Source: Candidatus Obscuribacteraceae bacterium
GTDB lineage: Bacteria > Cyanobacteriota > Vampirovibrionia > Obscuribacterales > Obscuribacteraceae
Assembly (NCBI GenBank): GCA_044229845.1
Contig: JBGASG010000004.1
Span: 256,001 to 320,000 of the forward strand
Direction: 5' to 3'
Length of the DNA stretch: 64,000 nt
The notes under the pieces were generated by a model, which did no database searches, was not told the DNA's origin, and saw nothing but the letters and a program-made list of their open reading frames with translations. A program made the position numbers and the translations under genes. Numbering within the stretch: the first letter of the stretch is position 1; each line of letters begins with the position of its first letter. This document shows, one piece after another, positions 1 through 4,507 of the stretch.

Positions 1-111
1 TCCAACAATAGCAACAAATTGCCCTTGCTCAATCTGCAGGCTAACTTGAGAAACAGCTTCTACAGCGCGTTCGCCACCGAATGTCTTGCTCAACTGATCG
101 AGGGTCAGCAT
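1..111 (-). CDS. ABC transporter ATP-binding protein (LolD/MacB-like), 5' part only; runs off the window start
   Basis: Own translation from ATG at 111: MLTLDQLSKTFGGERAVEAVSQVSLQIEQGQFVAIVG, the typical lead-in to Walker A. Directly follows the permease stop. Confidence 0.85.
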   Translation of the reverse strand, partial: MLTLDQLSKTFGGERAVEAVSQVSLQIEQGQFVAIVG

Positions 112-112
112 G

Positions 113-1381
113 TCACTTACCCTCCCCATTGATCAGAACGTATGGCTCTCTGGCGGTTGCTCGCCAGGCGGGCAGCACCGCTCCGAGGGCACCCATGAGA
201 AACGCTACGCCCAGGCAGCCAACAGCAACGAGGGACATTTCAGCAAGCGAGGGCCAGATGAAATCCACATGCAGAGAGCGCAGCAGATATACCAACGAAT
301 GCTGAAAGCCCAGCATCAGTGCGCCGCCGATAATCAGTCCCAGCACGCCGCCAATACCGGTGGTCAGTCCGGCTTCAGTCAGCATCATCCAGACTATATT
401 GCCGCGATGGGCACCGATGGCTTGCAGCACACCAATCTCCCGTCGTCGCTCTTCAATAATTGCTGAGAATAGGAGACTGACCAGAATCATGGATCCCACA
501 ATCATCATGGCGGCAAAGCCCAGCAGCCCACCCAGCAATGCCGTAATCGTCTGTCTCGTAGACGTCACCAGGCTGGGACCTGTGATTACTTTGATACCTG
601 GCACTTTGCTGAGCGCAAACCGTACTTGCTCCGGAATTGCTCCGAATGAAAGGCGAATCAGTACAGCCGACACGCGCGACTTGTCGAACTTCGGGGATGG
701 CGCATTGTCTCCGGTAGCCTCTTTGACGATAGATTCAACGGTTTCGTACGGAGCAAATAACGATTCATCGAAGGGTCCGACCCCGCTTCGTCCGAGCTTT
801 CCATAGATATTTGCCGGCTTCAGACATGGCTGAATTTCCTGCCCGACGGATTCTATGCGCCGACTACCGGCGATCAGTTCGCCGGGTTTGATGGCACCCG
901 GTGCGCGCTCGCTCAACCAGTTCATGACTGTGAAATCACGAGCCGGGTCAAATGCAATCAAGTTGGTCTTGCAACCTGGCATGCCTGCCATTACGGGAAC
1001 GCGATATATAGTTTGTGGTGCTACTTGTGCAACGCCGCTCGTACGGGCAATCTCATCCACTTGTTTGAGATCTAAGCCGTCTTCAGTAGGTTGCACAGTC
1101 AGCAAAGCACTGGTGATGTTCACCATCGCCTTGGCAGGGACGACAATCAGGTCTGCGCCCATGCGGGCGAAGCTCTGTTCGGTACTTGCTTCTATGCCTT
1201 TGCCGACCAGAAAGGAAGCGAAGATCGCTGCCGTCCCCAGGGCCACAGCCAGAACCAGCATGCTGGTTCTGGTCGGGCGCCGCAACAGATTTTGGAACGC
1301 CATGCGCGCGAACACTTTGTTAGCCACAGCCCGATGACCATGGCGTGCCTCTGCGACAGCGCGCTTCACTACCGAGACCAT
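113..1381 (-). CDS. ABC transporter permease, FtsX/MacB family
   Basis: N-terminal 'AFQNLLRRPTRT' plus a TM helix, a periplasmic domain, and C-terminal 'EERRREIGVLQAIGA' and 'GAVLPAWRA' motifs. Confidence 0.92.
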   Translation of the reverse strand: MVSVVKRAVAEARHGHRAVANKVFARMAFQNLLRRPTRTSMLVLAVALGTAAIFASFLVGKGIEASTEQSFARMGADLIVVPAKAMVNITSALLTVQPTEDGLDLKQVDEIARTSGVAQVAPQTIYRVPVMAGMPGCKTNLIAFDPARDFTVMNWLSERAPGAIKPGELIAGSRRIESVGQEIQPCLKPANIYGKLGRSGVGPFDESLFAPYETVESIVKEATGDNAPSPKFDKSRVSAVLIRLSFGAIPEQVRFALSKVPGIKVITGPSLVTSTRQTITALLGGLLGFAAMMIVGSMILVSLLFSAIIEERRREIGVLQAIGAHRGNIVWMMLTEAGLTTGIGGVLGLIIGGALMLGFQHSLVYLLRSLHVDFIWPSLAEMSLVAVGCLGVAFLMGALGAVLPAWRATAREPYVLINGEGK

Positions 1382-1389
1382 GGCACCAC

Positions 1390-3126
1390 CTATAGTGTCG
1401 TGCAGCGACTGTTTCTGAGGTGCTCGGCCTTAGTGGGAACGATCACGCAGTCGTGGTGCCCGCCGAAGTTCGGGAGGTAACCATACGGCTCCAGAGTGTC
1501 TTGCCGGAAGATGAACACACCACTTTCATAACGCTGGAATCCGCTGAATATCTGAAAGACAAACTTCCCGTCATACGAGACGGCCATCGTCTGCGCGTCG
1601 TAGCCGATGTCAGGAAACTTGTGCGTGATCTTCCACGTTTTGGTATCAACCACGCAGCAACCGCTGCGCTTCGGATATTTGTCCAGAACGGAGACGAACA
1701 TCTTGCTGCCGTCCATAGAGAAGCACAGGTGGAAGGGACAAGGGAATTCACCGACCCACTTCTCGTCCTTCACATAAGTGATCTTCTTCCAGTTTTTCGG
1801 ATCCGGATCCGACGTATCAAACACAGCCATGTTGTTCTGCTTGATGTTGTTCATCATGGTGAAGAACTTGCCATCGGGCGAGAAACCGGCTTCGTGTCCA
1901 ACGCACTTTATGTCGTCGAACTTCACTTCCCATGTGTCAGGGGCGCCGTGCAGCTTCTTCACTTCAATGTTGCCGGGAGATCCTTCCGGGTTGTGCAAGC
2001 AGGCAACCATTTCCCAGTTGGTACGATCGACGATTACCGCGCACGAAAGCATGCGGATAATCAATGCCGAGTAGCGATTGCCCGGGTGGTGCACAACGGC
2101 ATCAAGACCGGTGAGTTCCTTCACCACCTCTTTGGGCTTATCGCCGGCGCCGGGAAGCCGTCCTGTGTAGACAAAGTTCTCTCCCATCGGCACCATTTCG
2201 TATTTGATCTTGTTTCCTTTGGTTCCTTCGAGATCAAACTTGCCGAGTTCGAGGGGCTGGATTAGTCTCGTTATCCGTAGCGTTCCGCCTTTTGCCCAGA
2301 CATCTTCCAACGGTCCATCCTGATGAGTTCCCTGCCAGTCTGCCTGGAACGCCGCCAGGCAGCTGGTCTTTTTGCCCAGGGAACCGTCGGGCATCAAGGC
2401 CGGTCGATCGAAAAATGCAGCGATGTCTTTCTGCCCGTCCGCCCCGGCAAAGCCGTTGCCATCCGGATAGATTGTCGTGTGAACGCCAAGCCCCATCCCG
2501 GTGGACTCAGCTACGTTCTCTACGAGATTCATTTTCTTGCCGTCAAACCAGACGCGATATATGTTGTTGCCCTGCCCGTATTTGTCGAGCAATCCCTTCT
2601 TCTTAATGTCGGTAGGAATTTCGTAGATCAAAAGGTTGTCGCCGCCCTGAGTGGAGTTGACGAACTCGAAGCCTTTGTATGGATCGGGCGATGGATAAGC
2701 TGCGAGGTGGTGCGAGATCGGGCACGAATCCCCGTAGTTCCAGTAGCTGATCCAGGCTGCGGTTTTCGAAGTTTCAAGATCAACAACGTGCGTGCCGCCG
2801 CCGAGTTTCTCCGGCGTCAAATACATGTATCTGCCAAGATCGGCTTTCGATTGTTTAAACTGCTGCGCATTGATTGACTTGATCGAGTTGGAAACCGTCT
2901 CGACAGCTTTCTCCTTGGCGAACAAATTCAGTCCCCAGCCGAACAGCTTATCGGCTGCAATCGCAGTGGAAGCCGCTCCGCCTGCCACAAGCATGTCGCG
3001 ACGCGACAGCGTCTGCCCGTTCAACAAACGATAAAGCTCGTACTTCACCACTCGATGGAAAGACGGTTTGAACCTCGTCGGATCCGGAAGTTCCTGACGT
3101 TCCGGAAGATCGGGAAAGTCGCTCAC
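1390..3126 (-). CDS. Thiocyanate dehydrogenase (TcDH)-like copper beta-propeller enzyme, Tat-exported
   Basis: Motifs recalled from Thioalkalivibrio TcDH: WNYGDSCPISHHLAAYPSPDPYKGFEF, STQGG, GLGVH, DGQKDI, GTKGNKI.YEMVP, GHEAGFSPDG, PFH, GHHD.VIVP...LRNSRCTT. Twin-arginine SRRDML followed by a hydrophobic stretch. Confidence 0.88.
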   Translation of the reverse strand: MSDFPDLPERQELPDPTRFKPSFHRVVKYELYRLLNGQTLSRRDMLVAGGAASTAIAADKLFGWGLNLFAKEKAVETVSNSIKSINAQQFKQSKADLGRYMYLTPEKLGGGTHVVDLETSKTAAWISYWNYGDSCPISHHLAAYPSPDPYKGFEFVNSTQGGDNLLIYEIPTDIKKKGLLDKYGQGNNIYRVWFDGKKMNLVENVAESTGMGLGVHTTIYPDGNGFAGADGQKDIAAFFDRPALMPDGSLGKKTSCLAAFQADWQGTHQDGPLEDVWAKGGTLRITRLIQPLELGKFDLEGTKGNKIKYEMVPMGENFVYTGRLPGAGDKPKEVVKELTGLDAVVHHPGNRYSALIIRMLSCAVIVDRTNWEMVACLHNPEGSPGNIEVKKLHGAPDTWEVKFDDIKCVGHEAGFSPDGKFFTMMNNIKQNNMAVFDTSDPDPKNWKKITYVKDEKWVGEFPCPFHLCFSMDGSKMFVSVLDKYPKRSGCCVVDTKTWKITHKFPDIGYDAQTMAVSYDGKFVFQIFSGFQRYESGVFIFRQDTLEPYGYLPNFGGHHDCVIVPTKAEHLRNSRCTTL

Positions 3127-3202: not shown

Positions 3203-4507
3203 TTACTCAGATGCAACCGCAGGGCCTTTTCCGTGCTCGTCGAAATTCCACTCTTTGTCCGCTTCGACCGTGCTCAATCCAAGATGCTCGTAAATGAGCC
3301 CAGCGCCGCCCTTGCTGACGAACACCGACAGTCTCGTGTCGTCAATCTCCCAGGTGTAATTCTGGTTGTTGGGGAATATCGATGCATGCGGCTCACCATA
3401 AATTCGGCGTGCCTGCTCAAGCATGTGCTCTACGTCACCTTTCACAAAAGCCTGCACCGAGCGAAGTCTGAAAACCCCTTCGTCCATGCAAAACTTCGCT
3501 GTCGGCTGCCCTCGCTCTATATAGGTGACGCCCGGCCACGGCGGTTGCGCATTGGCAAGCTGAAACTCCCTTGTTATGCCAGGGTAGCGTGAGGCGAGTT
3601 CGATCCACCTGATTTCTTGTGCATCCATGATGTCGCGCGTGCGCCGCGCCGATGCACCCAGCGGCACCTCGCCAAAAGCGACACCGTCGTGTTGTTCGTA
3701 ATCGTGCGGACATTCGTTGATCATTGCCGCATCTCCGCGGACGACCCAGCTCGGCGAGCTGGCACTGCATACGGTGGCATCGGTCCGCAGCGCCACTGCT
3801 TCCCATTCGCCAGCGGCCGCCACCAACTGCTGGACGTAGAGATTGCGTAATGGTTTGTATTCCCAGACCACCTCAGCGGTGTTGGCATCGATGGTCCGCA
3901 GAGTGACGTCTGTACATCCCTTGCACCAACGACTGACGGACCCCTCCTGTTGCGGCTTACCGAAATCATAGGTGAATGACCAGATAGCATGAGAGATGTC
4001 GCCTCGAATCAATCCGGAAATTTTGTAGAGGCGAAACACGTTTGCGTCATTGACGAAGTGCTCGCGAGGAGGCGCGGTCCATTGACACGTGCCGCCGGTC
4101 GGTGATGGGAAATAAGGCAAGGTCACTTCTCTGAGAACGCGCGGAAAGGGCACGTTCTCCACCGGCATCCAGCCGGTTTCGTGCACGCCGGACATTACCT
4201 TGGTCTGCGCCGCCGAACACCCCAACTGAATTCCAATAACTCGAATGCCGTCGTAGTTTTCGTCGTAGTCATCGGTGCGAGTCTTCTGCATCGCACTGTC
4301 GGTCGACAGGCGTGCCTTTCGCAACAGCTCCCGGCGCCAGGGCGGCGTGTTTTCATCGACCGCAAACGTTTGCGGATTGCGCACTGCCGCCGCCACCGAT
4401 TTAGCTGATAGGTCGGCATCGCCGGCACTGCAAGCGCCAAGCAATGACGTCGAAATGACAAACGCGAGCAAGTAGATGCCCGGGCGCAAGTTCCACGGCA
4501 TAAGCAA
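3203..4507 (-). CDS. Hypothetical lipoprotein with an internal duplication
   Basis: Lipobox LLGAC. The two halves share motifs (YDGI..I.LG.SA vs HDGV...V.LGASA; VFRLYKISGLIRGDI vs VFRLRSVQAFVKGDV). Confidence 0.65.
   Translation of the reverse strand: MLMPWNLRPGIYLLAFVISTSLLGACSAGDADLSAKSVAAAVRNPQTFAVDENTPPWRRELLRKARLSTDSAMQKTRTDDYDENYDGIRVIGIQLGCSAAQTKVMSGVHETGWMPVENVPFPRVLREVTLPYFPSPTGGTCQWTAPPREHFVNDANVFRLYKISGLIRGDISHAIWSFTYDFGKPQQEGSVSRWCKGCTDVTLRTIDANTAEVVWEYKPLRNLYVQQLVAAAGEWEAVALRTDATVCSASSPSWVVRGDAAMINECPHDYEQHDGVAFGEVPLGASARRTRDIMDAQEIRWIELASRYPGITREFQLANAQPPWPGVTYIERGQPTAKFCMDEGVFRLRSVQAFVKGDVEHMLEQARRIYGEPHASIFPNNQNYTWEIDDTRLSVFVSKGGAGLIYEHLGLSTVEADKEWNFDEHGKGPAVASE

Follow-up and report, generated by a model that had tools for sequence, protein, structure and literature searches.

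The gene at positions 1390..3126 on the minus strand of the window (the whole 64,000-nt stretch of DNA analysed here, to which all positions refer unless a contig is named) encodes a 578-residue thiocyanate dehydrogenase (TcDH)-like protein in which one histidine of the active site is replaced by Gln512. As judged from our alignments and trees, this His-to-Gln change defines a large and old branch of the family and is not peculiar to the window gene or its host. The fold, 12 of the 13 active-site residues, a fixed Gln512/Glu412 pair, purifying selection and an operon with an ABC module are established for the Gln-type protein. We propose, with moderate confidence, that it would be exported by the Tat route, hold two coppers and act on a C1 compound resembling thiocyanate, the canonical oxidation with sulfur capture being absent.

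The open reading frame begins with a GTG codon preceded, 7 nt upstream, by the SD-like sequence AAAGGGG, and it contains zero internal stops. A predicted Tat signal is formed by the twin-arginine motif SRRDML (residues 41–46; 2989..3006, minus strand) and a short Ala-rich stretch, where the PF10518 match is weak and below the cut-off. The RR motif was recovered by regular expression in 65 of the 72 loci having an N-terminus, and TatC is present in the host genome. From about residue 93, the protein forms a seven-bladed beta-propeller. In a phmmer search of PDB sequences it matches nine distinct chains, all of them TcDH, with 465–468 bits for the Pelomicrobium methylotrophicum enzyme and 393–399 bits for the Thioalkalivibrio paradoxus enzyme (5F75, 399 bits), at E values of 2e-118 or better; NCBIfam and Pfam returned no family for it (E 0.001–0.01). 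The AlphaFold2 model (pLDDT 88.9), which is predicted and metal-free, aligns to pmTcDH with a TM score of 0.94 by target, and the structural alignments to solved TcDHs give 40–47% identity. Against 5F75 the model reaches Z 57.5, 458 residues superposing with an rmsd of 1.4; the row that follows stands at Z 32.5. Sequence and fold homology thus place the protein in the TcDH family, as originally predicted, yet its aligned active site departs from that of EC 1.8.2.7. RNA runs contained just 5–8% of the words. Among three such runs, one covered the gene with two contigs of 151 bases at depth 4, and the other two touched the permease or flanks only; as DNA carry-over is possible, these reads are not evidence for expression or for a habitat. 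Upstream of the gene lies an ORF (3203–4507, minus strand) of 434 residues whose N-terminus resembles that of a lipoprotein; it matches neither Pfam nor NCBIfam and is not conserved next to the Gln-type gene at other loci.

The Fig. 4 legend of PMC6504805 gives 13 active-site residues of TcDH: Lys103, His135, His136, Gln156, His206, Glu288, Asp314, His381, His437, His482, His528, Asp529 and Arg544. In the alignment to 5F75, 12 of them are kept as Lys107, His139, His140, Gln160, His216, Glu310, Asp342, His411, His466, His558, Asp559 and Arg574. The 13th, His482 of T. paradoxus TcDH, corresponds to Gln512 (CAG; 1591..1593, minus strand), the change that defines the clade. The segment GYDAQT (residues 508–513) aligns to GPDMHT of 5F75, exactly as anticipated from the sequence, and a one-residue gap ten positions upstream of Gln512 leaves the G-x-D-x-[H/Q]-T register unchanged. 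We take His482 of T. paradoxus TcDH to be a ligand of the third copper (Cu3), and His437, retained here as His466 (1729..1731, minus strand) and in 240 of 241 Gln-type sequences, to be the other. Following the T. paradoxus structure, Cu1 is presumably held by His216, Asp342 and His411, and Cu2 by Lys107, His139 and His558.

All motifs that the original prediction listed as retained are present in the 578-residue protein. One of them, GHEAG, is itself changed: both solved TcDHs read GHQAG, so that Gln382 of T. paradoxus TcDH becomes Glu412 (GAA; 1891..1893, minus strand), a second fixed swap beside the conserved His411. This column holds Glu in 240 of 241 Gln-type sequences and Gln in 78 of 79 His-type sequences. 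In 325 pooled rows, which contain protein/locus duplicates and omit five short loci, the residues at positions 382 and 482 are Glu/Gln in 240, Gln/His in 80, Glu/His in 2 and other combinations in 3. A third near-fixed difference between the branches is Ser488 (1663..1665, minus strand), equivalent to Asn459, with Ser in 238 of 241 Gln-type and Asn in 77 of 79 His-type sequences. After reduction at 80% identity, only columns 412 (E/Q), 488 (S/N) and 512 have a different residue in each group with fixation of 95% or more, column 512 separating the groups by definition. Beside Pro291, Gly292 is replaced by Met314 (2185..2187, minus strand; Met in 227 of 241 Gln-type, Gly in 79 of 79 His-type sequences), possibly an extra soft ligand or a lid change. 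By comparison with TcDH (EC 1.8.2.7; P. methylotrophicum 8Q9X and 8Z75, T. paradoxus 5F75 and 6UWE), the window protein therefore shares the fold and twin-arginine motif and differs by His482 to Gln, Gln382 to Glu, Gly292 to Met, Asn459 to Ser and an altered WWPSP loop. The other published active-site residues, including His437, Phe436, Pro291, Gln156, Asp529 and Arg544, are equally well conserved in the two branches. Several His-type sequences (P0305–P0325, one named Nitrospirota) carry Ser, Ala or Pro in place of His527 and keep His528.

According to their PDB titles, the same substitution has been engineered twice at the aligned position, as His482 to Gln in tpTcDH (6SJI) and as H447Q in pmTcDH (8YU5 and 8YU6); chain 8YU5 reads GPDMQT where the window protein has GYDAQT. 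These mutants reportedly lose Cu3 and activity. They are single changes on a His-type background, whereas the natural branch carries further changes fixed together with this one and evolves under purifying selection. Alignment to T. paradoxus TcDH thus upholds the predicted replacement of the histidine, and the co-fixed Gln382-to-Glu change may amount to the nearby compensation that the original prediction gave as grounds for refutation.

Gln occupies the site in 120 of 120 best homologues (the best 120 of 591 matches), which argues that Gln512 is neither chance nor sequencing error, and in all 77 genome loci that cover the site, out of 79 loci. Its codon is CAG in 56 and CAA in 21 of these 77 loci; a residue that is fixed and yet encoded by both codons points to selection for Gln rather than drift. 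An unconstrained site would vary, so the invariant Gln indicates that the position has not merely been freed from constraint. Consistent with this, pairwise dN/dS is 0.010–0.066 in nine of ten pairs of relatives, one pair being saturated, and the window gene shows pN of 0.18–0.22 against six relatives with synonymous sites near saturation. The Gln branch is under strong purifying selection.

The original prediction placed the change in an unexpected host; it is not peculiar to that host, Gln being fixed across several phyla. By record title, the carriers are Obscuribacterales/Melainabacteria, Planctomycetota, Verrucomicrobia, Methylococcaceae and Alphaproteobacteria, with a few probably mislabelled bins, and the named isolates comprise Methylocella tundrae (on a plasmid), Singulisphaera spp., Tautonia sociabilis and Rhodoligotrophos appendicifer. 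A search with a His-type query gave 75 His-type, 44 Gln-type and 1 truncated sequence among its best 120 matches. At 90% identity, we count at least 164 Gln-type clusters and at least 75 His-type clusters, numbers that depend on the queries and on the best 120 matches of each. His-type comparison loci were found by a motif scan in which six of seven matches were homologues. A literature search found no description of natural Gln-type TcDH homologues; the TcDH structure papers and supplements, outside that search, may mention some. In some Gln-type proteins of about 592 residues (P0016, P0017, P0020 and others), the twin-arginine region is preceded by an N-terminal match to HTH_Tnp_1 (PF01527), and others of about 743 residues have an unexplained N-terminal extension.

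Trees were quick LG+G4 inferences. In a 70-row tree from which columns 412 and 512 had been left out, the Gln/His label needs two changes. Once the longest outgroup row is dropped, the 39 Gln rows form one side of a branch with SH-aLRT 96.6, so that the Gln and His variants part as distinct groups. The distant His-type TcDH-like proteins P0136, P0150 and P0235 have His at the site; His is therefore the likelier ancestral residue, with long branches leaving the root unsure. These three and P0233, at 31–37% identity, carry further changes near the site, and P0136 combines Glu382 with His482. The Glu/Gln pairing corresponds to about one event on the tree, which indicates shared ancestry and gives no independent proof of compensation.

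The TcDH-like gene is the first of a three-gene operon. A MacB/FtsX-type ABC permease of 422 residues (113..1381, minus strand; PF02687, PF12704) follows 8 nt past its stop, and then the 5' end of an ABC ATPase gene (1..129, minus strand), which runs off the window; the ATPase is fused to a C-terminal domain that belongs to no Pfam family and ends in WIPMPPH. The permease adjoins the Gln-type gene in 68 of 79 loci; of the 11 misses, five have less than 900 bases of downstream flank and the three from Methylococcaceae are without it. In these three Methylococcaceae loci (L020–L022), the Gln-type gene has no adjacent ABC module; in L022 an RND efflux pair comes after the gene, and a bbp2 porin lies ahead of it on the opposite strand. 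At the His-type locus L083, the permease is 35% identical to that of the window, and a stand-alone gene is 27% identical (E 6e-22) to the ATPase-fused domain. The presence of an ABC module beside both Gln-type and His-type genes makes this accessory module a family trait, and it likely serves maturation; a role in copper loading is our guess. The W-x-x-M-P-x-H ending occurs in 46 of 60 ATPase ORFs and is absent from the L083 stand-alone gene. A feature/structure atlas search with the fused domain gave scores of at most 0.83 to unnamed clusters, its structural rows falling below the bar.

Thioalkalivibrio TcDH clusters contain ABC genes together with fccAB, a cytochrome c and copCD (PMC5328954). 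The window locus resembles TcDH clusters in its downstream ABC genes, a comparison made with metagenomic His-type loci and not with Thioalkalivibrio itself. Unlike the four ABC subunits of TcDH, however, it has one permease and a fused ATPase, and unlike the Thioalkalivibrio cluster it has no fccAB, cytochrome c or copCD among its neighbours. Across the Gln-type loci, no cytochrome c, Fcc or CopC/D family was found among the 74 scanned of 161 neighbour ORFs (E 1e-8). An AhpC/TSA-like gene is present at 39 of 79 loci, none of them melainabacterial; Thiohalobacter and Guyparkeria have a thioredoxin-like gene upstream (PMC6504805).

The host RecA is 75–83% identical to those of nine Obscuribacterales/Melainabacteria genomes and 54–68% identical to those of eight others, with four of the 21 giving no match at the threshold. 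By RecA the host is Obscuribacterales-like, as had been presumed. TcDH is known mainly from sulfur-oxidising chemolithotrophs; in this host, none of the sulfur-oxidation markers tested was found. Searches whose controls were each positive (for cyanase in only 1 of 14 genomes) found no photosynthetic reaction centre, RuBisCO, SoxY, Fcc flavin-binding domain (PF09242), cyanase or CopC (PF04234) in the host genome, which is 88% complete. With neither SoxY nor RuBisCO found, at this completeness, the genome does not show the Sox or rDsr and CO2-fixation genes of a chemolithoautotrophic sulfur oxidiser, which, together with the missing Fcc and the gene neighbourhood, agrees with the view that the host is no ordinary sulfur oxidiser with a canonical cluster. 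DsrA was found neither in the host nor in any of 50 carrier genomes, in a search without a positive control. SoxY was present in 6 and cyanase in 9 of these 50 carriers (the host and 49 of the 79 loci), most of which are incomplete bins; Verrucomicrobia-titled bins of 1.4–2.1 Mb are among them. The host has three heme-copper oxidase family matches. Its gene clusters for c-type cytochromes and members of the heme-copper oxidase family (G000:C20, about 16000–116000; C22:353839–357783; C1:894160–896796) are candidate periplasmic electron acceptors.

The gene occurs in 8 of 36 genomes of the same family, whereas the 23 genomes that represent other families of the order or class gave 0 occurrences; its absence from the same-genus genome G001 is an artefact, because the contig stops inside the permease. 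A tree of 38 rows places the window protein with the melainabacterial ones (support 83, not starred) as sister to Methylococcaceae, and both lie inside planctomycete rows (supports 97, 95 and 100). The protein is 68–69% identical to those of the planctomycete loci L023 and L024, while RecA is only 60% identical to that of the L023 genome. GC3 of the window gene is 0.68, the 76th percentile of 2584 long ORFs, spurious frames included; given this ordinary value and the presence in 8 of 36 same-family genomes, we reject a recent transfer into the host. The proposed horizontal acquisition is thus supported by the tree and its timing revised: an old, order-level transfer from a planctomycete-like donor, followed by patchy retention, is likely.

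TcDH binds three coppers, with thiocyanate N on Cu1 and S on Cu2 and Cu3, and an electron exit via His528 or Lys103 and Tyr164 has been proposed (PMC9456337). In the two-copper enzyme that we favour, Cu1 and Cu2 would both be loaded, the substrate would bind Cu1 through nitrogen, and water held by His140/Glu310 would attack the substrate carbon. With the second histidine for the sulfur-binding Cu3 missing, bridging sulfur capture and oxidation would be lost or slow. This reading rests on the fixation of Gln in all best homologues and covered loci, the low dN/dS and the engineering of the same change in both solved enzymes. The carriers mostly lack downstream machinery (SoxY in 6 of 50; no Fcc, RuBisCO or CopC found in the host), which argues for different chemistry, and substrate or activity may have changed, as first suspected. 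The likeliest use would be periplasmic nitrogen scavenging or detoxification by heterotrophs, not energy gain, with cyanate, cyanamide, and thiourea-like or thiocyanate-like compounds as candidate substrates. Against it, the conservation of the other active-site residues and of Tyr164 (kept in 233 of 241 Gln-type sequences) favours redox chemistry and a substrate that is unchanged or closely similar. In addition, a third metal site could be rebuilt by Glu412 and Met314, and the Gln-type operon L033 comes from a bin titled 'scnpilot' whose genome has cyanase. Some true thiocyanate oxidisers are without cyanase (PMC6504805, PMC6934394). A more speculative and rather unlikely extension is that this branch, the larger one of the family, is a naturally two-copper form that catalyses a new reaction, such as periplasmic hydrolysis of cyanate or cyanamide. 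If so, it would supply C1 nitrogen to heterotrophs that have no cyanase, as in 41 of the 50 carriers searched, trinuclear TcDH would be the minority form, and records automatically named 'thiocyanate desulfurase' in soil and freshwater metagenomes would be misread.

A remodelled three-metal site is a possible though less probable explanation. Here His466, with Glu412, Gln512 and/or Met314, would hold a third copper, and thiocyanate or selenocyanate would be converted to cyanate and sulfur for detoxification or nutrients. All other site residues are invariant, including the His437 equivalent, Glu412 is co-fixed with Gln512, the ABC module is the same as at His-type loci, and several JGI records are automatically named thiocyanate desulfurase, a transferred label. 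However, Gln is a poor copper ligand, the laboratory His-to-Gln mutants are said to be inactive, sulfur and cyanate sinks were mostly not found in carriers, and the Glu/Gln pairing, having originated about once on the tree, carries no weight as independent proof of compensation.

We consider it improbable that the protein is a non-catalytic periplasmic copper-binding or buffering protein, a partner of the MacB/FtsX ABC module in copper handling. The tight three-gene operon, the Met/His tail on the ATPase-fused domain and the failure to find CopC in the host would suit such a role, but non-ligand catalytic and pocket residues (the His136, Glu288, Phe436, Pro291 and Arg544 equivalents) are invariant, and the ABC module adjoins His-type genes too. 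A copper thiol oxidase like methanethiol oxidase (MTO; SELENBP1/MtoX) is about as improbable. MTO (SBP56) likewise has a seven-bladed propeller, a central His/Asp/Glu copper site and a small sulfur substrate, with about 1.2–1.4 Cu and a His-His motif (PMC10362175); methanotrophs are among the carriers, and one Gln-type record (P0354) bears the automatic UniRef name 'Methanethiol oxidase'. Yet a search of 20 proteins with E values as high as 1 allowed gave no SBP56 family match, and the TcDH fold match lies far above all other propellers, SBP56 being absent from the best 50 fold rows. MTO would be a functional analogue at most. A decayed gene or sequencing error has next to no probability: the longer end branch of the window protein (0.25–0.28) than those of its neighbours and the odd residues near the site (Tyr509, Ala511) are outweighed by the open frame, the existence of a database protein (P0002) with 98% identity, the fixation of Gln across 241 sequences and strong purifying selection in relatives, and for the whole branch the same idea is refuted by the universal Gln, its two codons and the low dN/dS.

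The three-copper centre of TcDH has been called unique. The same substitution that crystallographers engineered there is fixed naturally in no fewer than 164 protein clusters over several phyla. Either a two-copper form with other chemistry occurs in common heterotrophs, or a third site has been rebuilt without the histidine, and both alternatives bear on the role of Cu3. 'Thiocyanate desulfurase' labels should not be read as thiocyanate oxidation. Because named isolates carry the Gln type, the question is open to bench testing, and the Methylocella tundrae plasmid carrier is tractable. On that plasmid (L088, NZ_LR536451.1, 9578–14306), the Gln-type gene, permease and ATPase are accompanied by the accessory domain as a separate gene.
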